Assembly (NCBI GenBank): GCA_963734495.1
Contig: CAVTHK010000011.1
Location: 32,001-96,000 of the forward strand
Origin: an uncultured Spirochaetota bacterium
GTDB taxonomy: Bacteria; Spirochaetota; Spirochaetia; SZUA-6; CAVTHK01
DNA length: 64,000 nt
Direction of reading: 5' to 3'
Below, piece after piece: positions 9,184-64,000 of this stretch. Position numbers and translations under genes: made by a program. Within the stretch, counting starts at the first letter, position 1. Every line of letters begins with the position of its first letter. The notes beneath the pieces are model-generated. The model saw nothing but the letters and a program-made list of their open reading frames with translations, did no database searches and had not been told where the DNA came from.

Positions 9184-9729
9184 ATGATCAAGCGGAGCGC
9201 AGTGGAGAAGGCGCGGAGATGGGCGTTCGAGACCTTCCGAAAGGCCGGCGTCCCGATCCGTGATGACGAGAAGGACAAAATCGAGATCGCCGATTTCGGG
9301 CTCGGCCGGTTCGACGAGCAGGGCATGCACCTGTTCACGATGGTGGCGACCGAACGCTACGCGGCCAAGGCCCTGGCGCTCGCGCCGCTGCAGACCGAGC
9401 CGGAGCACTGGCACCCGCCGGTGGGAGACGATCCTGGCAAGCAGGAGACGGTGCGCGTCGTGTGGGGCACGCTCTACTTCTACCTCCCGGGCGAAGACAC
9501 GCTGAAGAAGGGCTTCGTCCCGGCGGGCCGGGATGCGGTCTTTACCTGCCGGCACGAGCTCGTGATGAAGCGCGGCGATCAGCTCACGCTCAAGCCCGGA
9601 CAGAAGCACTGGTTCCAGGCGGCCGCAGAAGGCGCGGTGATCTACACCTTTTCCAGCACCGCGCGCGACGTGCTCGACGGCTTTACGGACCCCGACGTCC
9701 AGCGGGTCACGAAGATCGTGGAGGGCTGA
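9184..9729 (+). CDS. D-lyxose/D-mannose isomerase family (cupin)
   Basis: IEIADFGLG, YAAK, PEHWHP, GKQET, HWFQA, FSSTARD..D.FTDP. Confidence 0.88.
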   Translation: MIKRSAVEKARRWAFETFRKAGVPIRDDEKDKIEIADFGLGRFDEQGMHLFTMVATERYAAKALALAPLQTEPEHWHPPVGDDPGKQETVRVVWGTLYFYLPGEDTLKKGFVPAGRDAVFTCRHELVMKRGDQLTLKPGQKHWFQAAAEGAVIYTFSSTARDVLDGFTDPDVQRVTKIVEG

Positions 9730-9883
9730 CAGGCGCGGCGGGAGCCATTTGACCGGAGGCGCGGATATGCAGACATTTGATCCGTGCGAATTCCAGTAAA
9801 GTTCCGGCCGTTCCTTCTCCTCGAGCACGGATACCACGTACCAGAAGGGCTGGAGCGCGGGAGCTTGCGCGAGGAGGCATGAC

Positions 9884-48290: not shown

Positions 48291-48533
48291 GTGACGGTGC
48301 AGATCCTGGGCGGCGGCTGCCCCAAGTGCCACCAGCTCGAGAAGAACGCGAAAGAGGCGATCGCGCGCCTGGGCATCAACGCGACGGTGGCCGCGGTCAC
48401 CGATATGGACAAGATCGTTGAGATGGGCGTCATGGTCACGCCCGCCCTCGCCGTCGACGGCACGGTGAAGAAGGCCGGTGCCGTCCTGTCGGTCGACCAG
48501 ATCACGCAGATCCTGAAAGCGAGCGCGGGATGA
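48291..48533 (+). CDS. Small thioredoxin-like redox disulfide protein (MTH895 type)
   Basis: ILGGGCPKC, GVMVTPALAVDG; AGGAGG RBS. Confidence 0.9.
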   Translation: MTVQILGGGCPKCHQLEKNAKEAIARLGINATVAAVTDMDKIVEMGVMVTPALAVDGTVKKAGAVLSVDQITQILKASAG

Positions 48534-49762
48534 GCTCTCTGGAGACTCGCCCGCGGCCTGCTGACCGGCTGCGGGCGGCGTTGTCGGAAAAGAAGAATCA
48601 GGCGCTGCTGATCCTCTTCGGGGTGTTCCTGTTCGCTTACCTCGTGCCGTTCGCCCATCCGCGCGTGAGCGGCGCCGTCAACGAAGCCTTCGCGATGCTG
48701 GGCGAGTACGCGCGGCAGCACGTGCTGCTGTGCCTGGTGCCCGCTTTCTTCATCGCGGGCGCGATCACGATGTTCCTCAACCAGCAGTCCGTGATCCGCT
48801 ACCTCGGGCCGAACGCGCCCAAACCGGTGGCGTACAGCGTGGCCGCCGTGAGCGGCACGATTCTCGCCGTCTGCTCGTGCACAGTCCTTCCTTTGTTCAA
48901 GGGCATCTATCGCAAGGGCGCGGGTCTGGGGCCCGCAGTCTCCTTTCTCTATTCCGGGCCCGCGATCAACGTGCTGGCCATCGTGCTGACGGCCAAAGTG
49001 CTCGGGCCCGAGCTGGGCCTTGCGCGGGCGCTCGGCGCCATGGCATTTGCCGTGCTCATCGGCCTGTCCATGCACATGATATTCCGCCGCGAGGACGAGC
49101 AGCGGACCACCAATGCGGCGATGTTCGAAGGCGAGGTCCCCGCCGCGCCTCGTTCCCTCGGGCAGACCTCGATCATGATGGCCGCGATGGTGGGGATCCT
49201 CGTCTTCGTGAACTGGGCGCCTTCAGCGGGGGCCGCGGGGGCATGGGACGTGGTGTACAGGGCGAAGTACCTGATCACGGCCGCCTTCGGCCTGCTGCTC
49301 GTGTACTCGCTCCTGCGATGGTTCGAGCGCAGCGAGCTGCGCGACTGGGTCGCAGCCACCAGGGACTTCGCGGTGCAGATCCTGCCGCTGCTCTTTGGCG
49401 GAGTGCTCGTGGCAGGGTTTCTCTTGGGGCGGCCGGGCCACGGCGCGCTCATCCCCCAGGGCTGGGTCGCGGGGCTCGTGGGCGGAAATACGCTGGGCGC
49501 CAACCTGATCGCGTCGGTGTTCGGCGTGCTGATGTATTTTGCCACGCTGACCGAGGTCCCGATCATGCAGGGGCTGATCGGCGCCGGCATGGGCCAGGGG
49601 CCGGCCCTCGCGCTGCTGCTCTCGGGACCGTCTCTTTCCCTCCCTTCGATCCTCGTCATCGCGGGCGAGATCGGCTGGCGCAAGACCGCGACTTATGCCG
49701 GTCTCGTGGTAGTGTTCTCCACGCTGACCGGCCTCGGCTATGGCGCCCTGATGGGACGGTGA
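48530..49762 (+). CDS. ArsP/DUF318 family permease
   Basis: LAVCSCTVLPLF, FLYSGPAIN, MYFATLTEVPI, GPSLSLP. Confidence 0.88.
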   Translation: MSSLETRPRPADRLRAALSEKKNQALLILFGVFLFAYLVPFAHPRVSGAVNEAFAMLGEYARQHVLLCLVPAFFIAGAITMFLNQQSVIRYLGPNAPKPVAYSVAAVSGTILAVCSCTVLPLFKGIYRKGAGLGPAVSFLYSGPAINVLAIVLTAKVLGPELGLARALGAMAFAVLIGLSMHMIFRREDEQRTTNAAMFEGEVPAAPRSLGQTSIMMAAMVGILVFVNWAPSAGAAGAWDVVYRAKYLITAAFGLLLVYSLLRWFERSELRDWVAATRDFAVQILPLLFGGVLVAGFLLGRPGHGALIPQGWVAGLVGGNTLGANLIASVFGVLMYFATLTEVPIMQGLIGAGMGQGPALALLLSGPSLSLPSILVIAGEIGWRKTATYAGLVVVFSTLTGLGYGALMGR

Positions 49763-49768
49763 CTCTGA

Positions 49769-50204
<436 letters not shown>

Positions 50205-50215
<11 letters not shown>

Positions 50216-51450
50216 CAACGAAGCGGCGGCAGGCAGGCAGGTGAGAGGGCTCGGGCTCTTCGACCGCTATCTCACTCTCTGGGTATTCCTCTGCATTGTC
50301 GCGGGCATTATTCTGGGACGCCTCGCTCCGGAAACGGCGAAATTTCTCGACGGCCTGTCGATCTATTCTGGCGGCGCGCCGGTCGTTTCCATCCCGATCG
50401 CGGTCTGCCTCTTCTTCATGATGTTCCCGATCATGGTCAAGATCGATTTCCGCGAGGTGGTCCAGGCCGGCCGCAGCGCGAAGCCCGTCGCGCTGACGCT
50501 GTTCGTCAACTGGGCGATCAAGCCCTTCACGATGTACGCCATCGCCGTGTTCTTCCTCGGGGCGGTCTTTCGCGGCTTCATCGGCGCCGATGCCGTCGAT
50601 CTGGTCAAGATGCCCTTCGGCCTGGACCTGCCGGTGGGCGCGACGTACGGCTCAGGAACGGTCGTGCTGTCGGAGGGCGCCAGGATGCTGCAGGTGCCGC
50701 TGTGGCGCAGCTACCTGGCCGGCTGCATCCTGCTCGGGGTCGCGCCCTGCACCGCGATGGTGCTGGTGTGGGGCTAGCTTGCCCGGGGCAACGACGGTCA
50801 CACCCTCGTGATGGTGGCCATCAACTCGCTGACCATGCTGCTGCTGTACGGACCGCTCGGCGGCTTGCTGCTCGGAGTCGGCCGGCTTCCCGTGCCCTGG
50901 CAGGCGCTGGTGCTCTCGATCGCGATCTACGTCGCCTTGCCGCTGGTGGCCGGCTACTTCGTCCGTCGATGGATCATCGGCGCCAGAGGCGAAGCGTGGT
51001 TCCGGGAGAAGTTCCTGCACGTGCTCTCGCCGATCACGACCGTCGCGCTCCTCGCTGACGCTGGTGCTTCTGTTCTCGTTCAAGGGCGACGTGATCGTCG
51101 CAAACCCGCTGACGATTCTCTGGATCGCCGTGCCGCTCTTTATCCAGACCATGCTCATCTTCTGGCTCGGTTACTGGCTGGCCCGCGTTCTGAGGCTGAC
51201 CTACGCCGACGCCGCCCCCACCGCGATGATCGGGGCGTCGAACCACTTCGAGGTCGCCATCGCCACCGCGACCATGCTGTTCGGCCTGTCCTCCGGCGCG
51301 TCCCTCGCCACGGTGGTCGGCGTGCTGATCGAGGTCCCGGTGATGCTGATGCTGGTGCGCATCTGCCTGAAGACCACGCGGTGGTTTCCGCAGACGGCGC
51401 CTGCCGCGGCGGTCGCGCAGGCACGGCCGACACGAGGTCGTTCCGCTTGA
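50205..51450 (+). pseudogene. acr3: ACR3 arsenite efflux transporter, interrupted in this sequence (TAG at 50775, +1 frameshift near 51054)
   Basis: [64 protein letters not shown]. Confidence 0.8.
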
Positions 51451-51454
51451 GGCC

Positions 51455-52222
51455 TCACCGCGCCGAGACGCCCCCGTCGATGACCAGCTCGCTCCCGGTC
51501 ATGTAGCGCGACTCGTCGGTGGCGAGGAACAGGATCCCCCAGGCGATGTCGTCCGGCTGGGCGAGGCGGCCGAGCGGGGTCATCGCCGTTCGTTTCTCCC
51601 GCACTCCCGGCTGCGAATGGAAGTTGCGCGTCATCGGCGTTTCGACGAACCCCGGGAAGACCGCGTTCACCCGGATGCCCTCGGATGCGTATTGAATCGC
51701 CGCTGTCTTGGAGAGCGCCCGGACCGCCCCCTTGGATGCGGCGTAGGCCGTGCCGAAGTCGTCCCCCACGATCGCGTAGACCGAAGCGGTGTTGATGATC
51801 GAGCCGCCGCCCGCGGCGCGCATCAGAGGGACCGCGTGCTTGATCCCGAGGAACACGCCCCTCGCGTTGGTGGCGAAGGTGACCTCCCACCCTTCCACGG
51901 TCGTGTGCTCCACCGTCGGCCGCGAAAGCGGCCCTCCGCGCCCGGCGTTGTTGACGAGCACGTCCAGCCTGCCGAAGAGGCTCCTGACGCCGTCCATGAC
52001 GCGGGCCCACCCCGGCTCGTCGCTCACGTCGAGGTGCTCGAAGACGACCTTGACGCCGCCCTTGCCGAGCTCCGCGGCAAGCGTCTGGCCCGCCTCGTCG
52101 TTGATGTCGGCGATCACGACGCCCGCTGCGCCGTGGGCGGCGAAGAGCCGGCAGGCCGCCCCGCCGATTCCCGATGCGCCGCCGGTGACGAGGGCGACCT
52201 TGCCCCGCAGCCTTCCGTTCAC
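51455..52222 (-). CDS. SDR family oxidoreductase
   Basis: [27 protein letters not shown]. Confidence 0.93.
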
Positions 52223-52285: not shown

Positions 52286-54205
52286 CTATCCCTCGTGCAC
52301 CGCGGTGCGTGTCGCCGTCCGCTGGGTCGCCAGGGAGACCAGCACGAGCACCACGAAGCTGAACGGGATCGAGATGATCCCAGGGTTCGCCAGTGGTATC
52401 GGCGCCTTGAGCGGGTCCAGGCCGTAGAGGCTGTACATCGTCGGCGAAAAGAGAATGAGCCCGATCGAGGAGGCGATTCCGGCGATGATGGAGGCCGTGA
52501 TGCCGGCGGCCGTCGCTTTCTTCCAGAACAGCATCATGATGATCGCCGGCAGGTTTGCCGAAGCGGCCACGGCAAAGGCGAGCCCCACCAGGAACGAGAC
52601 GTTCACGCCCTTGAAGATGATCCCGAGGACGATGGCGACGAACCCGACGGCGAAGGCAACGACCTTGCCGACGAATACCTTCTGCTTGTCACTGGAGATC
52701 AGCCCTCCGAACCGGTCCAGAAGGTCGTGGGCCACCGCGCCCGAGGCCGCAATGATGAGCCCGCTCACCGTGCCCAGAACGGTCGCGAAGGCGATCGCCG
52801 AGATCATGGAAAAGAGAAAGGTTCCAAACGTGCGGGCCAGCAGCGGTGCCGACATGTTGTCGTCCAGCAGGTTGACCACGCCCCCTGTCATCGCGCCGAG
52901 TCCCATGAAGAGCGTGAGCACGTAGAACAGGCCGATGGCGGCGATCGCCACGATGGTCGACTTGCGCGCCGCCGCGGCGCTGGGCACCGTGTAGTAGCGG
53001 ATCAGGATGTGCGGCAGAGCGGCCGTGCCCAGGAAGAGAGCGATCATGAGCGAGGCGAAGTCGATCCGCTGCAACGGCGTGCCGTCGACGCGGAAACGGA
53101 GCCCGGGGCGGAGGATCCGGCTCCCTTCGGTGAGAACCGGATAGTAGACAGTCACCTTGTCCTGGCCGTCCGCGAACCGTGTCGACTTCCACAGTCTCAC
53201 CTTGCTCTGGCGATCGCCGATGAGGCTGAGGAACTTGAAGGGTCCTATCGGGCCGGTCCTCACCTCGGGTCCGGTCTTTCCCGCGATCGCTTCCATGTTC
53301 CCGACCAGGGCAAGCTGATTGTCGCGAGAGGCCGGAGCCCCGTTGATGACGTCCGGCTGCCCGGGCCGCGTTACCACCGACTGAGTCTCCTGCAGGCGGA
53401 CGGTGCCTTCCGCCTTTTCGACCTTCCACCAGGTCGACGTGCCGTCGCGCAGGAGCCTGGCGAACCGCAGGCCTCCGGCATCGACGACGGCGGCCACGCT
53501 GTAACGGGGGTCCTCCGCGGCAAGCGTCCCGCCGGTCTCCGCGGCGTTCAGGGTTGCGTACTGCTTGAACGGCACGCGGCCCCCCTGGTCGGGCGTCGTC
53601 GAGAGCCCGCGCAGGCTCACCGCCGCCACCAGGACCAGGGAGAACACGATCAGGAGGGTCCCCTTGATGAACTGCACGTAGGTCGTGGAGGTCATGCCGG
53701 CCGTAGCCACGATGGTGACGACGATGAAACCGACCATGATGACCCCTGCGTAATGCGGCAGGCCGAGCAGCGGGGTCACAAGAACGCCGGCGCCCACCAT
53801 CTGGGGAATGAGGTAGCACAGCGAGACGAGCAGCGTGCTGATGGCGGCCGCGAGCTTGATGCCCTTGTTGTCGAACTTGGCGTCCAGCGCATCGGTGAAC
53901 GTGTACTTGCCGAGCCGCTTGAGCGGCTCAGCCACGACGAAGAGCGCCACGATCCAGCCGGCGAGGTAGCCGATGGAATAGAGGAAGCCGTCGTACCCCG
54001 CTGTGGCGATCATGCCGCAGATCCCCAGAAAGGAGGCCGCTGAGAGGTAGTCCCCCGCGAAGGCCACGCCGTTTACCGACCAGTGGATCCGGCTTCCGGC
54101 CGCATAGTAGCCGCTCGCTGACCTCGCACGCCCCGCGAAGTAGAAGGAGATGGCCAGCACCAGGGCGACAAAGAGCACAAAGAGAGCAACGGGAAGGATG
54201 CCCAT
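52286..54205 (-). CDS. actP: Cation/acetate symporter (SSS family) with a large soluble insertion
   Basis: NGVAFAGDYLSAASFLG, YLIPQMVGAG, GTAALPHILIRYYTVP, AFATVLGTVSGL, AASANLP. Confidence 0.88.
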   Translation of the reverse strand: MGILPVALFVLFVALVLAISFYFAGRARSASGYYAAGSRIHWSVNGVAFAGDYLSAASFLGICGMIATAGYDGFLYSIGYLAGWIVALFVVAEPLKRLGKYTFTDALDAKFDNKGIKLAAAISTLLVSLCYLIPQMVGAGVLVTPLLGLPHYAGVIMVGFIVVTIVATAGMTSTTYVQFIKGTLLIVFSLVLVAAVSLRGLSTTPDQGGRVPFKQYATLNAAETGGTLAAEDPRYSVAAVVDAGGLRFARLLRDGTSTWWKVEKAEGTVRLQETQSVVTRPGQPDVINGAPASRDNQLALVGNMEAIAGKTGPEVRTGPIGPFKFLSLIGDRQSKVRLWKSTRFADGQDKVTVYYPVLTEGSRILRPGLRFRVDGTPLQRIDFASLMIALFLGTAALPHILIRYYTVPSAAAARKSTIVAIAAIGLFYVLTLFMGLGAMTGGVVNLLDDNMSAPLLARTFGTFLFSMISAIAFATVLGTVSGLIIAASGAVAHDLLDRFGGLISSDKQKVFVGKVVAFAVGFVAIVLGIIFKGVNVSFLVGLAFAVAASANLPAIIMMLFWKKATAAGITASIIAGIASSIGLILFSPTMYSLYGLDPLKAPIPLANPGIISIPFSFVVLVLVSLATQRTATRTAVHEG

Positions 54206-54491
54206 CTATCGGCCCTCCTTGTTGTCGGCAAGCTCCGCCTCTTTGCGGCTGCACGCGCGGTTGTAGAAGTAGGGCCAGGACCAAGGCGAGGACGATGAGC
54301 CCCATCCCGTACACGACGGCCAGGTTCAGCCCTGCGACGACCGTCACGCCCATGAGCGAAGGATCGATCAGATTGATGGCGACGAATCCCGCGTACACGG
54401 TGCAGTAGATCACGAACATGATCACGCCCAGACGCCTCTTGAATGCGAACGCGGGGTCCCTGCCGGCGGATGCGGCTGGCTGGTGCAACAT
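54206..54491 (-). CDS. DUF485 (YjcH-like) small membrane protein (apparent +1 frameshift near 54270)
   Basis: KRRLGVIMF.IY..VYAGFVAIN...GLNLAVVYGMGLI; one-base deletion gives FYNRACSRKE...EGR-TAG directly abutting the actP ATG. Confidence 0.8.
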
Positions 54492-54629
54492 GCGACGACC
54501 TTCCTTTTCTCTGTCGTTGTGGCTGTTTATCTCATTCCTGCACTCAGAAAGCAAGCAACTCCCCGCCCGCCCCCGCCGGCCGGCGCGGCTTGGAGAAGGC
54601 GGGCGAACGGGATACGATGGACCAGGCCG

Positions 54630-57600
54630 ATGAGCGAAGAAATCTGCGTGGGCCTTCACTGCCATTCCAACCTCAGCGACGGAAGCCTCACGCCCGAACA
54701 GCTTGCCGAGCTTGTCGCGTCGCACGGCGCCCGGTACGCGGCCCTCACGGATCATGACACCGTCGCGGGATCCCGTCGTTTCCGACAGGCTCTTTCGCGC
54801 CTGGGCGTCGGCTGCGTCGACGCGGCCGAAATCACGACCGCCTCGCCCTGGGGTGAGATCCATCTGCTGGCCTACGGCGTGCGCGTCGACGACGAGAATC
54901 TTCTGGCCCTGCTCGAGGCGACTCGCCGGCGCACAGATCCCGGCGTGCAGGGCCTGGTCGATTCCCTCCGGCGCTTCGGCTCCCGGGCGGATCCTCCGCA
55001 TCCGCAAACGGCCGGCCCCGCCGAGGTGATTGCCGCGATCCACGCGGCCGGCGGCGCGGCCTTTCTCGCTCACCCGCTCTCCTACGCCTTTGACGCGGGT
55101 TCCCTCGAGCCGATCATCGCCGAGCTCGCGGCTGCCGGGCTGGACGGACTGGAGGCGATCTACCCGGGGTATGCCCCGCAGAATGTAGAGAGGCTGCTGG
55201 ACCTCGGCCGGAAGTACGCCCTCGCGATCAGCGCGGGAAGCGACTACCACGGCCCGGGCATGGCCGGTCCGGTCTCGCCCTGCGTTACCATGGACAGGCA
55301 GCGTTGGGAGGCGTTGCGGGATCATATCCTGCGCGTGGCTCCTCAGGGCCGGGGCGGGGGCGACGGCGCGCCGATTCCGCTGCCGGTTGCCAGTCGAGTG
55401 CGCCTGGGCGGATCTGCAGCCCGTGTCATCTTCCCCGCCGTCCTCGCGATCGTCCTCTTTCTCGTGACGATCTTTGCGGTGCTCATCCCGAGCTTTGAGC
55501 GCGTTCTCATGGAGAAGAAGAAGGACCTGATCCACGAGCTGACCAATTCCGCTGTGAGCGTCCTCGCGGAGTTTGCCGCCGACGAGCGGGCCGGCTCCCT
55601 GACGCGCGAGCAGGCACAGAGCGCCGCGGCTGCCCGCATTCGGGATCTCCGCTACGGCAAGGAGGGCAAGGACTACTTCTGGATCACCGACACGCATCCC
55701 ACGATGATCGTTCACCCCTACCGCCGGGAGCTGGAAGGCACGGACGTCTCGGGGTACATGGACGCCAACGGCGTGCGGGTCTTCGTGGAATTCATCAAGG
55801 CGGTCCGGGAAAAGGACGAGGGCTACGTCGAGTATCTGTGGCAGTGGAAGGACGACGCGCACCGCATCGTGCCCAAGCTGTCATTCGTCAAACGCTTCGC
55901 CCCCTGGGACTGGGTGGTGGGCACCGGCGTCTATCTCGACGACGTGAACTCCGAGATCACGGGGATCGCGGGCCGCTTTATCGGGCTGGAGGCGGCGGTT
56001 TCCGTCGTGCTGTCCCTTCTTCTGGTCTTCATCGCGCACCAGAGCCTGGCCGCCGAGCGGCGTCGCCGGGTCGCAGAGTCCAGCCTGCGGGAATCTCACG
56101 AGAAGTACCGGGCGCTGGTGGAGGCGTCGACCGAGGGGATGCTCATCGTGGTCGGCGGCGCCTGCACTTACGCCAACAGGACGCTGCAGGACATGCTTGG
56201 TTTTACCGAGGCGGAGATCTCGCTCCTCGGGGTCGCCGACCTGATCCGGGCCCGCGAGGGAGACGACGCGGCCCGGCGCGCGTTTCTCGACTCGCTCTCC
56301 GGCGATCCCGCGCGATCAGCGGCGCCTGCCGGCGAGTTCCCGCTGGCGGGCCGCGACGGGCGGACGGTGGATGCGCTGCTCACGGCCTCCCGATTCGACG
56401 TGGCCGGCCGGGACAGCGCGATTATCACAGTAAAGGATCTGGCGGCACGGCGGAGGGCCGAGGCGGCCGCCGACTCCGTCGGCCTGTCCGACGCCCTGTG
56501 GAAGGGCGTCGCGATCGGGATCTTCAGGGCAACCTGGGGCCGCAGAGCGTTCCTGCTGGCCTGCAACCCCGCGGCGCGCGAGATCCTCGGCCTTTCCGGA
56601 GACACCGACATCACGCAGGTCAACCTCTTCAGCCTGCTGGCCGATCAACGCGAGGGGGAAAAGCTCTACAGCGACCTCTCCGAGGGCATCGCCTTGCGCG
56701 AGCGCGAGGTTCGCCTGCAGGGGCTCGACCGCCGCGAGCGTGTCGTCCTCCTTTCCGCGGCGGTGGAGTCGGACGCCGACAGCGGCGAAACGCGCTGCCT
56801 CGACGGCGTCCTGCAGGACGTGACCGAGCTCACGCGACGCCGCCAGAGAAGCGAGGAGCTCATGGCGGAGCTTGAGACTTCATCGCTGCTCCTGCTGGAC
56901 TCAGTGGAGAGATATTCAACGCCCGCCGCGACCTGCGATATGAACACCCCGATCCGGACGGCAGCGGGGCGCATGAGCCGGACCCGCCAGGACGCCCTGG
57001 TGGTGCTGACCCCGGCCGGGGATCCTGTCGGGATCGTGACGGATCGCGACATGCGAGAGCGCGTCGTGGCCGCCCAACTGGATCCGCAGCGACCGGTGCG
57101 CGAGATCATGAGCTCGCCCCTGGTCACGACGCGCCAGAGCTCGCCGGTCTACGAGGCGATTCTCCTGATGCGCGAGCGGGGCATCGCGCATCTGGCGGTC
57201 AAGGACCCGGAGGGCCGGGTGGTCGCCGTGACGCGGGGGATGGACCTGTTGCGGATGCAGCGTCAATCCCCGGCCATGATTCGTCAGGAGATCCGGGCTG
57301 CCGGCTCCGTCGAGGATCTCACGGAGTGCCGGTCCAGAGTGGCGGACCTGGTGCGGGGTCTGGTTGCGGGCGGCGCGCGACCGCGATCCGCCGTTCGGGT
57401 CTTCTCCATGGCCTCCGACCTGATCGTCGAGCGCCTCGTCGACTTTGCCGTTCGCGAGCTCGGCGACCCTCCCGCCGCTTTCGCCTTTGTGGCCATAGGC
57501 AGCGAGGGACGCCGGGAGCAGACTCCAGCCTCGGACCAGGACAACGCGATCGTCTACGCGGACGCGGCCGACGCGGAGAAGGCCCGCCGCTACTTCGTGT

Positions 57601-58253
57601 CCCTTGGCGAAAGCGTCTGCCGGCGGCTGAATGAGGTAGGGGTCCCTTACTGCCAGGGCGGTATCATGGCCATGAATCCCGAATGGTGCGTTCCCCTTGA
57701 GAAGTGGCGAGGCTATTTTGCCCGCTGGATCCGGGAGCCGGAGCCCGAGCAGGTCTTGCGCTTCAACATCTTCTTCGACCTCCGGTGCACGACGGGGAAC
57801 GGCGAGCTCGTCGAGGCGCTGCTCCGAACCGCGCGGGACCTCGTCGCGGCGACGCCTTCGTTTCTTCTCCATCTGGCGCAGGACTCACTCGGGAAGCGGG
57901 TGCCCGCCAACCGTAAGGCGGGCGACATCGATCTCAAAGAGGCAATGTCGCTCGTTGTCAATTTTGCGCGGGTCTACAGTCTGCGTCACGGCGTCGACGC
58001 CACCAACACGCTCGAACGACTGGACGATCTGCGCGACGCCCGGGTTCTCAGCCGCTCTTCGCACGCGAACATCACTCAGGCCTACGAGCTCCTGATGCGT
58101 CTGCGGCTCGGGCTCGATTCGTTGACGCACAGGGCTGCCGTCGACCCGGCTTCGCTGCCGCGCGATCAGCAGGCGCTGCTACGGGACGCCGTGGCGGAAC
58201 TGCCGGTGCTCCAGAAGAAGATGGCCTTTGATTTCCTCGGCCAGGCGCTGTAG
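54630..58253 (+). CDS. Membrane sensor: PHP - TM - single Cache - TM - PAS - PAS - CBS pair - DUF294 nucleotidyltransferase-like - DUF294_C
   Basis: LHCHSNLSDG/TDHD/AHP/GSDYHG; LRYGKEGKDYFWI..MIVHP..YLWQW..KLSFVK.FAPWDWVVGTGVY; GIVTDRDMR..V.EIMSSP; GSEGRREQTPASDQDNAI; IFFDLR; DLK. Confidence 0.88.
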   Translation: MSEEICVGLHCHSNLSDGSLTPEQLAELVASHGARYAALTDHDTVAGSRRFRQALSRLGVGCVDAAEITTASPWGEIHLLAYGVRVDDENLLALLEATRRRTDPGVQGLVDSLRRFGSRADPPHPQTAGPAEVIAAIHAAGGAAFLAHPLSYAFDAGSLEPIIAELAAAGLDGLEAIYPGYAPQNVERLLDLGRKYALAISAGSDYHGPGMAGPVSPCVTMDRQRWEALRDHILRVAPQGRGGGDGAPIPLPVASRVRLGGSAARVIFPAVLAIVLFLVTIFAVLIPSFERVLMEKKKDLIHELTNSAVSVLAEFAADERAGSLTREQAQSAAAARIRDLRYGKEGKDYFWITDTHPTMIVHPYRRELEGTDVSGYMDANGVRVFVEFIKAVREKDEGYVEYLWQWKDDAHRIVPKLSFVKRFAPWDWVVGTGVYLDDVNSEITGIAGRFIGLEAAVSVVLSLLLVFIAHQSLAAERRRRVAESSLRESHEKYRALVEASTEGMLIVVGGACTYANRTLQDMLGFTEAEISLLGVADLIRAREGDDAARRAFLDSLSGDPARSAAPAGEFPLAGRDGRTVDALLTASRFDVAGRDSAIITVKDLAARRRAEAAADSVGLSDALWKGVAIGIFRATWGRRAFLLACNPAAREILGLSGDTDITQVNLFSLLADQREGEKLYSDLSEGIALREREVRLQGLDRRERVVLLSAAVESDADSGETRCLDGVLQDVTELTRRRQRSEELMAELETSSLLLLDSVERYSTPAATCDMNTPIRTAAGRMSRTRQDALVVLTPAGDPVGIVTDRDMRERVVAAQLDPQRPVREIMSSPLVTTRQSSPVYEAILLMRERGIAHLAVKDPEGRVVAVTRGMDLLRMQRQSPAMIRQEIRAAGSVEDLTECRSRVADLVRGLVAGGARPRSAVRVFSMASDLIVERLVDFAVRELGDPPAAFAFVAIGSEGRREQTPASDQDNAIVYADAADAEKARRYFVSLGESVCRRLNEVGVPYCQGGIMAMNPEWCVPLEKWRGYFARWIREPEPEQVLRFNIFFDLRCTTGNGELVEALLRTARDLVAATPSFLLHLAQDSLGKRVPANRKAGDIDLKEAMSLVVNFARVYSLRHGVDATNTLERLDDLRDARVLSRSSHANITQAYELLMRLRLGLDSLTHRAAVDPASLPRDQQALLRDAVAELPVLQKKMAFDFLGQAL

Positions 58254-58274
58254 GCCCCTGCGCCGAGGCGGGCG

Positions 58275-59594
58275 TCACGAGCGGCGGAAGATCCTGGCGA
58301 GCAGGCCGCGGGGCGGCGCGATGCCGAAGAATCCGGAGATCTGGTTGGCGAGCTCCCGGCGCAGGATCTGGAAGGAGAAGTGCTTGCGCGCGAGCTCGAA
58401 GTTCTTGTCCGTCATCTCCTTCCTGCGCCGGGGATCGGTGAGGACCCTACTGACCTCCTTGACCGCGGCGTCCGTGACGTAGCCGTCGATCGCGATCACG
58501 TCGAAGCCCTTGGGCTCGATGTCCACGATGAAGACAGAGTAGCGGTTGACCAGGATCGGTTTGCGGAAATACACTGCTTCGAGAAACGCGTTGCCGAACC
58601 CTTCGTAAATGCTCGGGTAGGTGATCAGGTCCGCGTGCGGGTAGACGTCCCACAGCGAGTACCCGCCTGCTTCTCCCCGCGCCTCCTCGTTGAGCCTGTT
58701 GTGGATAAAGTGCAGCGGCACTCCCTGACGCAGGCCCCAGTTCCTCACCCAGTCGGCGTACTCCGGGCCTTCGTCGTCCATGGTGTGCGAGACGACGAGC
58801 TTCGCGTTGGGCATGTTGAGCAGCTCCACCAGGTAGATGGCCTGCTCGATGCCCTTGCGGAACACGACCCTCGTCGGCTGGAGGATGATGACGTCGTCCT
58901 CCTTGAAACCCATGTCCGAGCGGAAACGACGGCCGTCGCGCGGGCGGGGGGCCTTCTTCTCGAAGTCCATGACGTTGTAGATGAGGCGCGCGGCGATATT
59001 CCTGCGGGCCGCAAGCTCCGTCTGCGCCACGGAGTTGATCACGACGTGGCTGATCGTGGGGAGGTCGGGAGGAAACGCGGCGGCGAGGATGTCCTGGCAG
59101 GCGCTGCTCAGGAAGCGAGTCCGCTCCCAGAAGAAGTCGTGGTGGTGGGCGATGGTCGGGATTCCGGTCTCGGCGATGAGCTCCGTGAGCGCGACGCCCA
59201 GGGGGACGTGCATGGGGATCGCGAGGGCGTTCTCCACGACGAGCAGGTCGATGCCGAACTTCTCGACGAACTCGTACAGCCGGTCCTTGAGCTGCTCCTT
59301 GAGCCCGTGCAAGGCGTCGGTGGTCTTGCGCGTCCTCCGCTGGCCCGAGAACAGCGTCTTCGTGAGCTCGAGCACGGCGGGATGGCCGAAAAAGGCCTCG
59401 GGCACGAGGAGGCTCGCCGCGGGGTCGCGGTCCAGCTCCCCGGCGAACCAGAAGCACTTGTGGCCGAGCTCCCTGAAGACCGAGGCCCACTTGGACGCCT
59501 CGAGCGAGACCCCGTCGAGGCCGCGGAAGCGGGTCGAGACGAAGCCGACACGGAGCGACGCGTCGCGGCGGCCGCCCGAAGCGCCCGGCTTCAC
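58275..59594 (-). CDS. Glycosyltransferase family 4 (mannosylglucosylglycerate synthase-like)
   Basis: STRFRGLDGVSLE..KW, HHHDFFWER, LQPTRVV.RKGIE, TYPSIYEGFGNAFLEA; GTGA overlap with the upstream gene. Confidence 0.85.
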   Translation of the reverse strand: MKPGASGGRRDASLRVGFVSTRFRGLDGVSLEASKWASVFRELGHKCFWFAGELDRDPAASLLVPEAFFGHPAVLELTKTLFSGQRRTRKTTDALHGLKEQLKDRLYEFVEKFGIDLLVVENALAIPMHVPLGVALTELIAETGIPTIAHHHDFFWERTRFLSSACQDILAAAFPPDLPTISHVVINSVAQTELAARRNIAARLIYNVMDFEKKAPRPRDGRRFRSDMGFKEDDVIILQPTRVVFRKGIEQAIYLVELLNMPNAKLVVSHTMDDEGPEYADWVRNWGLRQGVPLHFIHNRLNEEARGEAGGYSLWDVYPHADLITYPSIYEGFGNAFLEAVYFRKPILVNRYSVFIVDIEPKGFDVIAIDGYVTDAAVKEVSRVLTDPRRRKEMTDKNFELARKHFSFQILRRELANQISGFFGIAPPRGLLARIFRRS

Positions 59595-61258
59595 GGAGCG
59601 TCCCCCAGCCACGCCGTCTGGCGCGGGGCCAGGCGGCGCGGCGCGGACCCGCCGCGGATCAGCTCGATCGCGCCGCGCGCACCCGGCAGGCGCTTCAGGT
59701 CGACCGAAACGCCGCGGTCCGAAACGTTCTGCAGGCAGAGCACCTGCCGGCCGTCCGGCGCCGTGCGCTCCACTGCGAACAAGGCGTCGCCCGCGTCGAG
59801 CACGCGGTGGGCCGTGCCGGGGGCGAACGCCGGGTGCGCGGCTCGCACTTCCAGCAGCCGTTTCACCCGCGCGAACACCCGCGCGCGCCGCGAGCGCGGA
59901 TCGGCGAGCTCCGCTTCGAGCGCCGCGAGCTCGAGCCGCTGCCTGTTGATCGCGCGGTTGCTGCCGCTGCGCTCGGCGCCCTCGCGCCAGCCCGTCGAGC
60001 CGAACATGCTGTGGAACCAGATGCCCGGCACGCCGGGAAGCGCCAGCGCGATCGCGTGCGCGCCGACCAGCCGGTCGACCCAGGCTTCGACGGGCTCGCG
60101 CGGATCGGTCAGCGCGTCGCCGTAGTTGATGTTCAGCTCATAGGGGCTCGCGCTGCCGTCGCTGCCGGTCCGGTAGGAGACCAGGCCTCCGTGCGCCAGG
60201 GCGCGGTCCACGAGAGCAGCCGCCTCGGCGTCGGTGAGGAGGCCGCGCGCGGCGTTCAACCCGATCCCGTCGTGCGACGCGAGGAAGTTGAAAAACGTCG
60301 TCCGCGGCGACGGGGAGGCGAGCGCCGCGGCCCACCGCGAAAGGGCCGCAGCGCTTCCGGCATGAAACGAGTGCAGCACCAGCGGCGGCAGCGCGAAGTT
60401 GTAGACCATCTGCGCCTCGTTCGCGCCGTCGCCGAAGTAGGAGACGTTTTCCTCGTGCGCCACGTTGGTCTCGGTCACCAGAGCGACGTGGGGCGCGGCG
60501 CGGTCGAGCACCGAGCGGTAGAGCTGGATGACGCGGTGCGTCTCCGGCAGGTGCACGCACGAGGTGCCCATCCGCTTCCAGAGGTAGGCGATCGCATCGA
60601 GCCGGATGATCCCGGCGCCGCGCGAAGCGTAGGAGAGCAGCGTATCGATCGTCTCCAGCAGCACCTCGGGGCGGGCGAAGTTCAGGTCGACCTGGTCGTC
60701 GGAGAACGTGGTCCACACGAGCCTCTCGCCGGCGGGCGTCGCGAACCTCGTGAGCAGCGGCAGCGTGCGCGGCCGCGTCACCATCGACAGGTCGGTCCCT
60801 TCCGCAACGGTGATGAACCAGTCGCGGTACCTCGGGTCGTCGTCGAGGAAACCCCTGAACCAGGCGCTGCGTACCGACACGTGGTTGAACACCGCGTCGA
60901 GCATGAGGCGGAATGTCCGTCCGAGGCGCGCCACGTCGTCCCAGCTCCCGAGCGCCGGGTCGACCGCGCGGTAGTCGATCACCGAGAAGCCGTCGTCCGA
61001 CGACGAGGGGTAGAAGGGGAGGATATGGACAAAGGTGAAGGTCCCCGCCAGGCGGCGCTCGCAGAAGCGGCCGAGAGCGGCCAGCGGCGGTGAGCCCGCC
61101 TCGCGCACCATGTCCGCGTACGTGATGAGCACGGCGTCGCGTTCGGTAAAGCCGCCCGCGGGCTGCTCAGGCATCCGGCCGCGCCACGCCTCGATCAGCC
61201 GCTCGATGCGCGCGTCGGTCTCGCGGCCCGACTGCTCGCCGTAGAGAAGCTCGGTCAT
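59591..61258 (-). CDS. GH13_18 sugar phosphorylase (glucosylglycerate phosphorylase/YcjM-like)
   Basis: LITYAD, HILPFYPSSSDDGF, WTTFSDDQVDLN, RLDAIAYLWK, TETNV, FLASHDGIG, PYELN. Confidence 0.9.
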   Translation of the reverse strand: MTELLYGEQSGRETDARIERLIEAWRGRMPEQPAGGFTERDAVLITYADMVREAGSPPLAALGRFCERRLAGTFTFVHILPFYPSSSDDGFSVIDYRAVDPALGSWDDVARLGRTFRLMLDAVFNHVSVRSAWFRGFLDDDPRYRDWFITVAEGTDLSMVTRPRTLPLLTRFATPAGERLVWTTFSDDQVDLNFARPEVLLETIDTLLSYASRGAGIIRLDAIAYLWKRMGTSCVHLPETHRVIQLYRSVLDRAAPHVALVTETNVAHEENVSYFGDGANEAQMVYNFALPPLVLHSFHAGSAAALSRWAAALASPSPRTTFFNFLASHDGIGLNAARGLLTDAEAAALVDRALAHGGLVSYRTGSDGSASPYELNINYGDALTDPREPVEAWVDRLVGAHAIALALPGVPGIWFHSMFGSTGWREGAERSGSNRAINRQRLELAALEAELADPRSRRARVFARVKRLLEVRAAHPAFAPGTAHRVLDAGDALFAVERTAPDGRQVLCLQNVSDRGVSVDLKRLPGARGAIELIRGGSAPRRLAPRQTAWLGDAP

Positions 61259-62112
61259 CCCTTGACCCCTCCGGCGACGAGGCCCTTCTCCAGGTACTTC
61301 TCGAAGCTCAGGAACAACGCGACGATCGGGATCGTCATGATCGTGCTCGCGGCCATCACCACGTCCCAGCGCGTGTTCAGCTGCTCGGAGATCGACAGCA
61401 GCTTGATGGGCAGCGTGAAGTTCTCGCGCCGGTTCAGGAACACGAACGCGTAGAGGAACTCGTTCCACGCGATCATGAAGGTGTAGATCGTCACCGACAC
61501 CATGGCCGGGACCGAGAGCGGGATCGTGATGCGCACGATCACCTGCGGCCGGCTGCAGCCGTCGATGAGCCCGGCCTGCTCGATCTCGTCCGGAATGGTC
61601 TTGAAGTATCCTGACAGCATGTAGAGGGCGACCGGCAGCGTCTGCGCCATGTAGGTGAGCACCAGGACGGCGAGGTTGTCCTGCACCTCGACGGAGAACA
61701 GACCCCCGAGCTTTACCATCATCGCGAACAGCGGGATGATCAGCAGCACCCCGGGGAACAGGTACACGACCAGCACCAGGTTCATAAAGAGGCGCTTGCC
61801 GGGAAAGCGCAGGCGGGCCACGGCGTAGGAGCCCATCGTCGCGACGACGATCGCGATCAAAGCGGTGGTCGGGGCGACGACCGCGGTGTTCGCCAGGTTC
61901 CTCGCGAAGCCCATCTCCCTGAACAGGATCCGGTACGCGTCGAGGTGGATGCGGCTCGGGAAGAAGACCGGCGTGCGGCCAAAGAGCTCCATCAGGTTCT
62001 TGGTCGACGAGGTGACCATCCAGTAGAAGGGGAACACGATCACGGCGAGCGCCGCGGCGAGCGCCGCCCAGAACAGAGCACGGTTCCGGCGCGCCCTCGC
62101 CGCGGTCACCAT
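61255..62112 (-). CDS. Carbohydrate ABC transporter permease (YcjP-like)
   Basis: FPFYWMV, IPDEIEQAGLIDGCS, AWNEFLYA, GLVAGGVKG. Confidence 0.92.
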   Translation of the reverse strand: MVTAARARRNRALFWAALAAALAVIVFPFYWMVTSSTKNLMELFGRTPVFFPSRIHLDAYRILFREMGFARNLANTAVVAPTTALIAIVVATMGSYAVARLRFPGKRLFMNLVLVVYLFPGVLLIIPLFAMMVKLGGLFSVEVQDNLAVLVLTYMAQTLPVALYMLSGYFKTIPDEIEQAGLIDGCSRPQVIVRITIPLSVPAMVSVTIYTFMIAWNEFLYAFVFLNRRENFTLPIKLLSISEQLNTRWDVVMAASTIMTIPIVALFLSFEKYLEKGLVAGGVKG

Positions 62113-63071
62113 TGCAGCACCTTCCGGATGTACACGGGCATGAAGCCCGCGAGGATCAGCACGAGGAACATCGCGGTGGCCGCGCCCTCGCCGAAGTCGA
62201 AGAGCTTGAAGCTGAACTCGTAGGTGAGGATGGGCAGCACGCGCGTGCCGAAGCCTCCGCCGGTGAGCAGGAAGACGTCGTCGAACTTGTTGAATGTCCA
62301 CATCAGGCGGATGAGAAAGACAGTCCCGAGCACGGTCCGCACCTCGGGCAGCGTGATGTGCCAGAAGCAGGTCCACCGCCCCGCTCCGTCCACACCGGCG
62401 GCCTCGTAGAGCGTCGCGTCGATGGCCTGGAGGCGCGCGAGGATCATGAGCATCGCGAAGGGGAAGTAGCGCCAGCCTTCGATGAGCACGACGATGGGAA
62501 GAGCGAGCCCCTGCCTCCCGAGCCAGGGGACCGGCTCTTCGATGAGCCCGAGGGAGAGGAGCGCCCAGTTGACCACGCCGCGCACCGTCGGGTCGAGGAG
62601 CCACCTCCAGACGTAGGCGACCGAGATCAGCGGCGCGATGTAAGGGACGAGGAACACGGCGCGCGTGAGGCCGCGTCCGCGGAAACTGCGGTTCAGAAGC
62701 AGGCTCGCGCCCAGTCCGGCCATCACCGTCACGATCGTGCCCGAGACCGCGTACACGATCGAGGTCCGCAGGGCGTCGGGGAACGCGAAGTCCCGTGCGG
62801 CCCGCAGGTAGTTGTCGATGCCGACGAAACGGGCACGGAACACGTCGTTGAGGTTGTCGAGCCCGACCCTGTGGAGGCTGATCCACACGTTGAAGACGAC
62901 GGGAAAGATGACCAGGCCCACGACGATGGCGAACGTGGGCACGATCATCGCGTAGGCGAGGCGCGCCTCGCGCCGTTCCAGCAGCGTGCGTCTGTAGCGC
63001 ATGGCGATCCCTCGAGGCATGCGCGCGCCCCCGCCGCGGTCCTCGCGGGCGGGGGCGGCGGCCGCCTTCAC
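62106..63071 (-). CDS. Carbohydrate ABC transporter permease (YcjO-like)
   Basis: FVGIDNY, WRYFPF, LYEAAGVDGA, FNKFDDVFLLT; start could be 63020 or 63002. Confidence 0.9.
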   Translation of the reverse strand: MKAAAAPAREDRGGGARMPRGIAMRYRRTLLERREARLAYAMIVPTFAIVVGLVIFPVVFNVWISLHRVGLDNLNDVFRARFVGIDNYLRAARDFAFPDALRTSIVYAVSGTIVTVMAGLGASLLLNRSFRGRGLTRAVFLVPYIAPLISVAYVWRWLLDPTVRGVVNWALLSLGLIEEPVPWLGRQGLALPIVVLIEGWRYFPFAMLMILARLQAIDATLYEAAGVDGAGRWTCFWHITLPEVRTVLGTVFLIRLMWTFNKFDDVFLLTGGGFGTRVLPILTYEFSFKLFDFGEGAATAMFLVLILAGFMPVYIRKVLQW

Positions 63072-63073
63072 CT

Positions 63074-64000
63074 TTACTTCTTATCCGCCATCCGGGTCTT
63101 GTACAGCTCCTCGACGCGCTGCTGCAGCCAATCGGCTGCCTGCTGCGGGGTCATCTTGCCTTCGACGACGCTGCTGACGGCCTGCGGCACCAGCAGGCGG
63201 CCTTCGATGTCGCCGACGACCGCGCGCTCCACCGGGCCCATCTGCGGGGCGTAGGCCCAGCGCTGCATGCTGTTGTAGCCGTTCACGACCGTGTCGATGA
63301 CCGACTTCGGGTAGCGCTTGAAGATGTCGTGCTGCGACCAGGCGTCGACCGCGGTGGTGCGCACGGGGATCTTGCCGTTGGGCGCGAGGAACAGGATGTC
63401 GATGTAGTCCTGGCCCGTGAGCATGAACTTGAGCAGCCGCACGGAAGCGTCGGTGTCGGTCCCCTTGAAGATCGCCATGGGCACGAGCTGCCCGAAGGTG
63501 GCGCTGCCGCCGCGCCTGCCTTTCATGCTGGGCGCGAAGCCGGTGAGCTCGCCGAGGTTCCGGACCGTGGGCTCGACCCCCTTCTGCAGCCCGACGAGGT
63601 CGTCCATGACGTAGGTCGAGTACCAGAGCATGGCGGCCTGGCCGGTGATGTAGAACTGCCGCGCCTGCATCCAGTAGTTGGGCCCGGGCGCCGCGTACTT
63701 CTGCAGGCCCGTGTAGAAGGCCAGCGCCTCCACCATCTCGGGCGAGCTCATGGCCACCCTGCGGTCCTTGTCGAAGGGGAAGGCGCCGTTCGACATCGCC
63801 ACCTGCTCGAAGATCTGGTGCCCGTAGTTCTGGCCGGGGTCCGTCCCGAGGGTGAGGGCATAGAGGAAGCCGTCCCTGCCCTTGAGCGCCTCGGCGGCCT
63901 TCTGGATGTCGTCCCAGCTGATGGGCGCGGCCAGGCCCGCCTTCTGGAACGCGTCCGTGCGGTACCACAGGGCCTGGATCCAGCCGTCGAACGGGACGGC
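63074..64000 (-). CDS. Carbohydrate ABC transporter solute-binding protein (YcjN-like), 5' end outside window
   Basis: Open frame to the window edge: AVPFDGWIQALWYRTD, GQAAMLWYSTY, GKMTPQQAA. Confidence 0.88.
   Translation of the reverse strand, partial: AVPFDGWIQALWYRTDAFQKAGLAAPISWDDIQKAAEALKGRDGFLYALTLGTDPGQNYGHQIFEQVAMSNGAFPFDKDRRVAMSSPEMVEALAFYTGLQKYAAPGPNYWMQARQFYITGQAAMLWYSTYVMDDLVGLQKGVEPTVRNLGELTGFAPSMKGRRGGSATFGQLVPMAIFKGTDTDASVRLLKFMLTGQDYIDILFLAPNGKIPVRTTAVDAWSQHDIFKRYPKSVIDTVVNGYNSMQRWAYAPQMGPVERAVVGDIEGRLLVPQAVSSVVEGKMTPQQAADWLQQRVEELYKTRMADKK

Follow-up and report, generated by a model that had tools for sequence, protein, structure and literature searches.

Proteins that combine a pair of CBS domains with a DUF294 domain have been described from Pseudomonas regulons that respond to acetate and other short-chain acids. 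They are the closest described relatives of the gene analyzed here, which encodes a predicted transmembrane receptor at positions 54630..58253 (plus strand) of a 64,000-nucleotide stretch of DNA from an uncultured Spirochaetota bacterium (GenBank contig CAVTHK010000011.1, positions 32,001 to 96,000; hereafter, the window). According to the available text of PMC9927547, pp_0354 (encoding a CBS protein) and pp_0353 (RNase_T family) of P. putida KT2440 form an operon whose promoter is bound by ErdR; growth on acetate was unaffected by deletion of either gene, and growth on pyruvate was impaired by deletion of pp_0353 or actP-I but not by deletion of pp_0354. The pair is described as coregulated with acs, actP, and scpC by MxtR/ErdR (PMC9927547; 10.64898/2026.09.07.749794). 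Elsewhere, in a text seen in part, PP_0354 is called a cNMP-2xCBS-nucleotidyltransferase; protein modification is suggested there by analogy with PII uridylylation, and the function is given as unknown. Expression of PA3232-PA3235 rises about 16-fold on propionate, as reported in the accessible part of PMC9765439. An initial annotation of the window, made from the letters alone, stated that such soluble pairs often flank actP: this holds for P. aeruginosa PAO1, where the homologous pair adjoins actP and yjcH, but not for P. putida KT2440, where it lies near glcB (PMC9927547, available text).

The window gene encodes a transmembrane form of this known, functionally uncharacterized DUF294 module; the form is widespread, and it differs from the soluble module (a cNMP-CBS-DUF294 protein plus a DEDDh exonuclease) in its input, its membrane location, and its fused PHP domain. 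We give about an even chance to the full reading of this protein as a carboxylate-gated, GlnD-like writer/eraser that acts on the acetate-uptake machinery. Its domains, all encoded on the plus strand, are ordered PHP, transmembrane (TM) helix, sCache_2, TM helix, two PAS domains, CBS pair, DUF294, and DUF294_C. The longest open frame, 54483..58253 (+), has a GTG start and corresponds to 1,256 residues; an ATG at 54630 yields a 1,207-residue protein (54630..58253, stop codon included) and agrees with the N termini of homologues, whose consensus starts a few residues ahead of the HCHS motif, the first of the PHP motifs. The frame is open throughout its 3,621 nt. The initial annotation was thus right about a continuous 1,207-residue reading frame; each PHP and nucleotidyltransferase (NTase) motif that it listed was located in the protein, and Pfam together with hydropathy reproduced its domain set, with no kinase, GGDEF, MCP, or HTH family detected by Pfam in the receptor.

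Kyte-Doolittle hydropathy places the two TM helices at residues ∼266 to 287 (55425..55490; maximum, 3.02) and ∼450 to 470 (55977..56039; maximum, 2.55), the second followed by ERRRRV. Because these two helices flank the Cache domain, and Cache domains are extracytoplasmic, the PHP part and the PAS-CBS-NTase part most likely share the cytoplasmic side, with Cache outside; the topology first proposed, with both enzymes in the cytoplasm, agrees with this placement. The first PAS domain spans residues ∼491 to 613 (56100..56468; Pfam PAS_8/PAS at 491 to 541, NCBIfam TIGR00229 at 487 to 613), and the second spans residues 643 to 733 (56556..56828; Pfam PAS_9, 35.4 bits). A promoter and terminator scan of 54000-58600 gave nothing relevant to the receptor that exceeded shuffled sequences.

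The receptor belongs to a family that, judged by its homologues, goes beyond chance occurrence. Of 7,999 candidates scored in a word-seeded protein search, 267 reached E ≤ 0.001; those listed, 120 with the query included, are 924 to 1,294 residues long, with 37 to 58% identity and the same architecture over their full length. Cache and DUF294 matches occur in all 120, and the generic PHP match occurs in the same protein in 113; at least two of the remaining seven (P0046 and P0091) match a profile of the PHP subfamily (see below). They are filed under generic names ("cache domain-containing protein," "PAS domain S-box-containing protein"). We also searched contigs from one genome per species with two peptide patterns from the Cache domain: at least 598 stretches matched, at least 576 of which encode relatives, and these span about 15 named phyla. 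Locus counts given below rest on the best 80 (L002-L081) of these at least 576 relatives, Cache-bearing forms only. They come from Spirochaetota, Chloroflexota, Armatimonadota, Actinomycetota, Acidobacteriota, Myxococcota, Sumerlaeota, Planctomycetota, Methylomirabilota, Gemmatimonadota, Verrucomicrobia, Omnitrophota, Ignavibacteriota, and others. In a FastTree phylogeny with 80 rows, made up of the window and 79 loci (all but L041), the window protein clusters with spirochaete sequences, and its nearest relative is L002 (57% identity); the same PHP-receptor fusion is present in 63 of the 80 rows, including L002. Residue conservation was scored in an alignment of 60 sequences, 59 of them clean full-length receptors and the other the window protein.

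A genome of the same order carries a further variant of Cache-gated DUF294 proteins (locus L082, G017:C259, 3450-5969): an 839-residue protein with an unassigned N-terminal region of ∼170 residues, sCache_2, PAS, and DUF294/DUF294_C. No PHP or CBS was found in it, and no actP or nuclease gene lies close by. No description of the PHP-Cache-DUF294 architecture was found in the literature, with subscription journals and supplements outside the search; the text found for DUF294 by name, as far as it was available, dealt with DUF2946 or went no further than the Pfam clan to which DUF294_C belongs.

In the output module, the DUF294 Pol-beta-type core (PF03445; residues 903 to 1040; 57336..57749) scores 154.6 bits against a Pfam gathering score of 21, and the helical DUF294_C domain (PF10335; residues 1095 to 1202; 57912..58235), which also has a weak GlnD_UR_UTase match, scores 79.4 against 22.5. 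The Pol-beta motif is intact as G957-X11-D969-x-D971 (G957-S958...D969-Q-D971), a G-X11-D-X-D pattern shared with GlnE and DrrA. All 60 aligned sequences agree at G957, S958, D969, D971, and D1050, the last of which is probably the third catalytic carboxylate. A sequence search of the PDB with residues 741 to 1207 returned CBS proteins only, with no NTase relative. An AlphaFold2 model of residues 745 to 1207, built on the 60 sequences, has a mean pLDDT of 91.2. Apart from CBS proteins, its top Foldseek matches are the GlnE N-domain (1v4a; E = 1.3e-9), DrrA (6yx5_B; E = 2.1e-9; TMt, 0.71), and the GlnE C-domain (3k7d; E = 4.4e-8). VIA, a fold search independent of Foldseek and run against 48,161 chains, ranked the same three structures: 3k7d_B (Z = 26.6, 3.2 Å rmsd over 311 residues), 6yx5_B (Z = 26.4, 3.4 Å over 292 residues), and 1v4a_A (Z = 25.8, 3.3 Å over 314 residues), after which the rows are CBS pairs with Z of 18.8 or lower. 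The helical domain that DrrA and GlnE possess is aligned with DUF294_C, and the two-domain fold of an NTase core with a helical substrate-binding domain is recovered by both searches. Given these fold matches and the motif spacing, we conclude from the model that the module following the CBS pair is a GlnE/DrrA-type nucleotidyltransferase with a helical substrate-binding domain, much as the initial annotation had proposed in calling it GlnD/GlnE-like. In the available text of PMC3710099, likewise, DUF294_C and GlnD_UR_UTase are grouped together as domains found C-terminally in NTases of the Pol-beta superfamily. The preceding CBS pair (residues ∼757 to 879; 56898..57266; two Pfam CBS stretches, from 763) occupies model residues 13 to 135 and superposes on CBS pairs, several of which were solved with AMP or ATP.

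At the input end, the sCache_2 domain (residues 293 to 446; 55506..55967; Pfam, 142 bits), predicted to be extracytoplasmic, lies between two TM helices, as it does in sensors of C2/C3 carboxylates. Only four matches were returned by a PDB sequence search with residues 281 to 460, the top two being 4K08 (E = 1e-34) and the PscD sensor domain (PscD-SD) of P. syringae (5G4Y/5G4Z; E = 5e-33). As described in the accessible text of PMC5062169, the ligands of PscD-SD include glycolate, acetate, propionate, and pyruvate; the domain contacts its ligand through Y90, W92, H103, F126, Y143, W145, and K156, all seven of which are identical in McpP and Adeh_3718; the Adeh_3718 crystal (4K08) contained acetate; and PscD Met129 lies within 2.5 Å of the methyl group of modelled pyruvate. 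Mapped through a HMMER alignment, all seven contacts are kept in the window receptor (Y349, W351, H362, F385, Y402, W404, and K416), and these pocket residues are identical in 60 of 60 aligned family sequences. The position of Met129 is taken by Phe388, which could shift preference among C2 and C3 acids. The best NCBIfam model in this region is the monocarboxylate sensor kinase MctS, far under its cutoff. That the Cache domain is of the carboxylate-binding type, as first suggested, is well in line with the matches to acetate-bound 4K08 and PscD-SD and with the retained pocket.

The N-terminal PHP domain (residues 1 to 245; 54630..55364) was recognized by Pfam only weakly (residues 9 to 71, 28.4 bits, N-terminal part of the model), but its TrpH/RNase AM-like character is evident from PDB sequence and Foldseek matches. 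It contains H10-x-H12, S16-D17-G18, T40-D41-H42-D43, E67, H78, A147-H148-P149, and G203-S-D205-x-H207; the nine ligands H10, H12, D17, H42, E67, H78, H148, D205, and H207 (with D41) are identical in 60 of 60 sequences. Residues 1 to 260 match TrpH-type 3e0f (1e-21), 9etk, 7ug9 ("5'-3' exoribonuclease"; 2e-18), and 2yb1 by sequence. The PHP model (pLDDT, 89.6; low confidence only at residues 101 to 130 and the tail) is closest in Foldseek to the PHP domain of RNase AM 7ug9 (E = 8.3e-19; TMt, 0.85) and to Vibrio cholerae RNase AM 9etk (E = 7.2e-18); further matches are 3e0f/3o0f and 2yb1, which was solved with Mn, AMP, and phosphate. The insertion region at residues ∼100 to 130 is short compared with that of RNase AM. 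The best NCBIfam models, for 3',5'-nucleoside bisphosphate phosphatase and RNase RNM, score far under their equivalog cutoffs (NF041577, 107.3 bits against 400; NF047791, 98.9 against 375), so by its scores the receptor PHP is a separate subfamily and not an RNase AM orthologue.

Of 1.84 billion cluster representatives, 32,807 matched a profile of this PHP subfamily at E ≤ 1e-3, and 4,617 did so at E ≤ 1e-30. We checked the composition of the 140 new proteins within the top 150 matches. Those of 900 residues or more (52 of 140) all match a CBS-DUF294 profile as well; 71 have 330 residues or fewer; and the 17 of intermediate length comprise 14 PHP-sCache_2 pieces, 2 proteins with PHP only, and 1 with PHP, BTAD, and AAA_16 (Pfam). 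None of these 140 pairs the PHP subfamily with a kinase, GGDEF, or MCP domain.

PHP-coding sequence is present at 72 of the 80 loci, in 9 of them as an ORF of its own, immediately upstream of a receptor of ∼980 residues. These nine are eight Actinomycetota loci and L066, where the two ORFs overlap and the split may be an assembly frameshift. Five of the eight PHP-less loci (Myxococcota L046, L061, L067, and L076, plus L068) carry a soluble cNMP-CBS-DUF294 gene and a gene for an RNase_T/DnaQ-type DEDDh exonuclease, which adjoin the receptor and DUF485-actP; the soluble homologues at L061 and L068 align with residues 745 to 1207 of the window protein at 30% and 26% identity. The L076 exonuclease, used as a tblastn query, had no match in the 72 PHP-bearing loci or in the 64-kb window. 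The supposition that PHP replaces the usual DEDDh partner thus holds for the sampled loci (DEDDh at 5 of 8 PHP-less loci and 0 of 72 PHP loci), and it reflects about three evolutionary events. At the three other PHP-less loci we noted a gene of the AP_endonuc_2 TIM-barrel family (xylose isomerase-like; L062:14050-14931, L070:3273-4097, and L077:12973-13785), convergent to the receptor and, in L070 and L077, 2 nt from its stop codon. The best NCBIfam similarity of its product is to CbiR phosphodiesterase, under cutoff, with weak similarity to deoxyribonuclease IV. This gene could be a third phosphoesterase partner or a coincidence; we keep it as a lead only, because the three loci form one clade, two of them are 88% identical, and the gene is convergent.

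Another recurrent feature of these loci is a transporter gene. In the window, the receptor is divergent from a DUF485 (YjcH-like) gene (54204..54491, minus strand; Pfam, 32.9 bits over residues 18 to 74) and an ActP/MctC-like monocarboxylate:cation symporter gene (52286..54205, minus strand; 639 residues; Pfam SSF), an arrangement that was described correctly at the outset. With the window proteins as tblastn queries, an actP-like gene was found near the receptor in 69 of the 80 loci and a DUF485 gene in 63, so the actP linkage first suggested from one locus recurs across phyla, and the window and these 69 loci share the association of the PP_0354 type with actP/yjcH and short-chain-acid genes. 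Four of the 69 matches are weak and represent other SSF symporters (L013, 50% identity over 139 residues; L044, L056, and L062, 32 to 39%). When 896 greedily called ORFs within 6 kb of the receptor were clustered, broad recurrence was confined to ActP (58 loci) and DUF485 (44 loci); the next family reached 11 loci. actP lies upstream on the same strand in 58 loci, and in 47 of these 58 it ends ≤279 nt from the receptor match; the usual layout is therefore an operon-like row, DUF485-actP-receptor, with the divergent layout found in the window and in its nearest relative, L002. No actP match was found in 11 of the 80 loci, 6 of which have an upstream flank shorter than 2.5 kb; at L036, one of the other five, another SSF symporter lies directly downstream. 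No acs or PII-like family recurred in ≥12 loci in the neighbor clustering, whose small clusters were not all scanned with Pfam; Acs was accordingly dropped as a conserved neighbor.

Several observations concern the transporters themselves. The window symporter scores 414 bits with the NCBIfam MctC model and 369 bits with that for ActP, both under the equivalog cutoffs. Between two stretches that match the SSF/ActP models, ∼160 of its residues (∼197 to 359) are unmatched; this insert is probably extracytoplasmic, after the sixth hydrophobic segment, and seems typical of the receptor-linked subfamily, since receptor-linked ActP genes elsewhere have a median length of 636 residues. L062 (7336-9768) has, upstream of the receptor, a DUF4212 small membrane protein and a VC_2705-like SSF symporter instead of DUF485 and ActP; DUF4212 is a small-subunit family analogous to DUF485. 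In Actinomycetota, between actP and the stand-alone PHP gene, we also observed a gene for a SatP-type (Gpr1/Fun34/YaaH) acetate/succinate channel with an extra C-terminal region fused to it (L043, L060, L065, L069, L071, L072, L073, and L075, at ∼8700-9800, minus strand, as well as L006); going by its family, this is a second acetate transporter in those neighborhoods. Downstream of the window receptor, at 58275-63802 (minus strand), are genes for a GT4-type glycosyltransferase, an alpha-amylase-family protein, and ABC sugar-transporter permease and binding proteins; these genes have no recurring counterparts in related loci and seem to have nothing to do with the receptor.

Taken as a carboxylate-gated writer/eraser, the receptor would work as follows. 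The extracytoplasmic sCache_2 domain would bind a C2/C3 monocarboxylate: acetate, possibly also propionate, pyruvate, or glycolate. The signal would run via the second TM helix and the two PAS domains to the cytoplasmic CBS pair, which probably reads adenine nucleotides, so that PAS and CBS together could integrate the internal state of the cell. The output would be the GlnE/DrrA/GlnD-type NTase formed by DUF294 and the helical DUF294_C, which most likely puts NMP (AMP or UMP) on an acetate-uptake protein encoded next to it; ActP and the DUF485 subunit are the first candidates. The cytoplasmic PHP metallo-phosphoesterase would hydrolyze that phosphodiester again, and the writer and eraser together would tune carboxylate uptake to supply and energy state. 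The P. putida phenotypes would, by analogy, be the pattern expected if loss of the eraser leaves the transporter over-modified: a strain that lacks the nuclease behaves like one that lacks the transporter, whereas deletion of the NTase gene goes without effect. A more ambitious version holds that this is the first ligand-gated "receptor nucleotidylyltransferase," which reversibly AMPylates or UMPylates ActP-DUF485, with PHP as a new de-nucleotidylylase interchangeable in evolution with DEDDh; it is a tentative proposal, which we think somewhat less likely than not.

A number of points weigh against the writer/eraser. The nearest relatives of the PHP domain are RNA and nucleotide phosphoesterases (RNase AM and Cv1693), not known de-AMPylases. 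RNase AM and Cv1693 cut the phosphate at the 3'-O of a 5'-phosphorylated nucleotide, a cleavage geometry different from that of a Tyr-O-P-5'-nucleoside bond. The alternative partners (the RNase_T-type DEDDh and possibly the Endo IV-like TIM barrel) are likewise nucleic-acid enzymes, and no remover of the HD, PP2C, or Fic type was seen at these loci. The split, DEDDh, and AP-endonuclease groups are each one clade in the FastTree phylogeny, so three changes suffice to explain them. The query bore a PHP domain, and ranking the 80 loci on full-length similarity to it favors PHP-bearing forms; five loci with adequate flanks (L004, L036, L038, L079, and L081) have no actP match. None of 30 genomes of the same order carries a full-length receptor; the gene is thus patchy and not a core function. 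In the available text of 10.64898/2026.09.07.749794, deletions of pp_0353 and pp_0354 both affect growth on propionate and pyruvate only moderately. A complex prediction between PHP and CBS-DUF294 scored 0.00 in both runs, which were made without controls; we count it neither way.

The quality of the assembly around the receptor also bears on the interpretation. Compared with homologues in L002, L003, and L021, the DUF485 gene is shifted by 1 nt within its last third (∼54265 to 54285), with the conserved C terminus and the stop just before the actP ATG read in another frame; either the gene is a pseudogene or the assembly is in error here. Farther away, an ACR3/SBF-type arsenite transporter gene (50205-51506, plus strand) has an in-frame TAG at 50775-50777, and its C-terminal half has an Arg-rich translation that looks out of frame; it sits in an ars-like cluster with genes for an ArsP permease (48530-49762) and an LMW phosphatase/ArsC-like protein (49769-50215). 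Together, the DUF485 frameshift and the ACR3 interruption suggest indel errors in the assembly or decaying genes. Six metagenome runs contain only 5 to 12% of the sampled words; four runs gave short, partly divergent contig pieces, with the PHP/TM junction unspanned and 54241-54381 uncovered.

Could the fusion itself be an artifact of assembly or gene calling, with PHP and the receptor being separate genes? The nearby apparent errors or pseudogenes (the DUF485 frameshift, and ACR3 with its in-frame TAG and garbled C-terminal half) point that way, as does the separate PHP ORF at 9 of the 80 related loci. We nevertheless consider this explanation exceedingly improbable: the frame is open over 3,621 nt, the same fusion recurs in 63 of 80 tree rows, including L002 at 57% identity, and PHP, Cache, and DUF294 lie in one protein in 113 of the 120 listed homologues. 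A PHP domain that is genuinely fused may still not be the eraser; it could be an independent output, such as a pAp or short-RNA hydrolase, or a metal- or nucleotide-binding module that gates the receptor. Its scores far under the equivalog cutoffs (107 against 400 and 99 against 375 bits), which mark a distinct subfamily, and the short insertion region at residues ∼100 to 130, modelled with low confidence, would fit such a role. Catalysis is nonetheless argued for by the nine metal ligands, invariant in 60 of 60 sequences; among the top profile matches, moreover, this subfamily occurs stand-alone or fused only with Cache...DUF294 proteins, and where PHP is missing, another phosphoesterase gene adjoins. 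We regard a PHP domain without eraser function as very unlikely.

More weight attaches to the question of what the NTase modifies. It might act on nucleic acid or nucleotides, adding untemplated RNA 3' tails or making a linear or cyclic oligonucleotide signal upon acetate, with PHP or DEDDh degrading the product. The attraction of this idea is that characterized members of all three partner families cut nucleic-acid or nucleotide phosphoesters, since RNase AM-like PHP, RNase_T-like DEDDh, and Endo IV-like TIM-barrel enzymes act on such bonds: PHP is nearest to RNase AM (7ug9 and 9etk) and the pAp phosphatase 2yb1, with best NCBIfam models of the same kinds; the partner at PHP-less loci is an RNase_T/DnaQ-type 3'-5' exonuclease; and the third, AP_endonuc_2, has weak similarity to CbiR phosphodiesterase and deoxyribonuclease IV. 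The Pol-beta NTase superfamily, too, includes RNA-tailing enzymes. On balance we find a nucleic-acid or nucleotide product, the main rival to the writer/eraser reading, unlikely. GlnE and DrrA, both protein AMPylators, are alone among NTases in ranking high in both fold searches, matched over the catalytic and helical domains, in lists so crowded by CBS matches that RNA-tailing NTases could be masked. In addition, Pfam groups DUF294_C with GlnD_UR_UTase, which matches weakly here, and the available text of PMC3710099 agrees; Rfam had no match anywhere in the 64-kb window; and the sole conserved neighbors encode membrane transport proteins. If the target is instead a protein, it need not be the transporter: it could be encoded elsewhere (acetyl-CoA synthetase, a PII-like protein, or a transcription factor), with the actP linkage mere coregulation, or the receptor may mainly modify itself. 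GlnD and GlnE have soluble targets that are encoded elsewhere, and 5 of the 80 loci lack actP despite adequate flanks. The soluble P. putida pair lies near glcB and not actP and is coregulated with acs, actP, and scpC by MxtR/ErdR (PMC9927547, available text). This view sits poorly with DUF485-actP being the one gene pair found repeatedly beside the receptor in different phyla, mostly in operon-like rows with short gaps, with the absence of an acs or PII-like gene recurring in ≥12 clustered loci, and with L062, which swaps in an analogous pair, DUF4212 and an SSF symporter. A distant target or self-modification strikes us as quite unlikely.

The transmembrane form contributes a predicted ligand for the DUF294 module, in that its Cache pocket has the same residues as known acetate and propionate sensors. 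It also suggests a likely partner, DUF485-ActP, which stands in an operon-like row with it in many phyla. The writer and the candidate eraser are physically fused, so the writer/eraser idea can be tested in one construct. Should it be true, protein nucleotidylylation would take its place beside phosphorylation, methylation-coupled chemotaxis, and cyclic nucleotides as an output of membrane receptors; the removal of nucleotides from proteins would become a role of PHP and DEDDh enzymes; and acetate uptake would gain a layer of posttranslational control comparable to that of GlnD-GlnK-AmtB for ammonium. It would also explain the widespread pairs of DUF294 and exonuclease genes in the acetate regulon of Pseudomonas and Vibrio. 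If the product is RNA or a nucleotide, it would be a new acetate-responsive nucleotide signal. With either product, a function would be assigned to a domain family present in at least about 15 named phyla.

Among known systems, GlnE and the AMPylation domain of Legionella DrrA/SidM are the best structural matches of residues 745 to 1207 and have the catalytic motif in common with it, but the likeness is visible by fold only, at just 11 to 16% sequence identity, and neither is membrane bound or Cache gated. Their marks also leave by other routes: GlnE takes off AMP with a second NTase domain, and the DrrA mark is removed by a separate enzyme. GlnD resembles the receptor in plan, having a Pol-beta NTase, a helical domain, a metal-dependent hydrolase, and ligand-sensing domains in one polypeptide. 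GlnD, however, is soluble, with HD as its remover and ACT domains as its sensors, where the receptor has PHP, Cache/PAS/CBS, and two TM helices. Because no HD or ACT family was found in it (Pfam, E ≤ 0.01), the receptor is not a GlnD, and the resemblance is one of logic only; nor did a PII-like gene recur near the receptor in the clustered neighborhoods of related loci. GlnD ultimately controls a transporter via a small co-encoded protein (GlnK-AmtB).

On the sensing side, PscD, McpP (P. putida), and Adeh_3718 are like the receptor in all seven contact residues and in the two-TM, periplasmic placement of the domain. PscD-type chemoreceptors feed an MCP signaling domain for chemotaxis, whereas the output here is an NTase, and PscD has Met129 where the receptor has Phe388. 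Residues 1 to 250 are matched best, in sequence and in fold, by RNase AM (TrpH/YciV) and the pAp phosphatase Cv1693, and the PHP set of metal ligands is complete; in contrast to these two enzymes, the receptor PHP has a shorter insertion and is fused to, or encoded adjoining, a membrane receptor gene. Closest overall remain PP_0354/PP_0353 and PA3233/PA3232, which have the same core of CBS pair, DUF294, and DUF294_C, paired with a metal-dependent phosphoesterase and belonging to an acetate/short-chain-acid regulon. The PP_0354/PP_0353 pair is cytoplasmic, with a cNMP-binding domain as input and a separate DEDDh nuclease; in the receptor, Pfam gives no cNMP_binding match, the input is a PHP-TM-sCache_2-TM-PAS-PAS arrangement in its place, and the phosphoesterase is the fused PHP domain.

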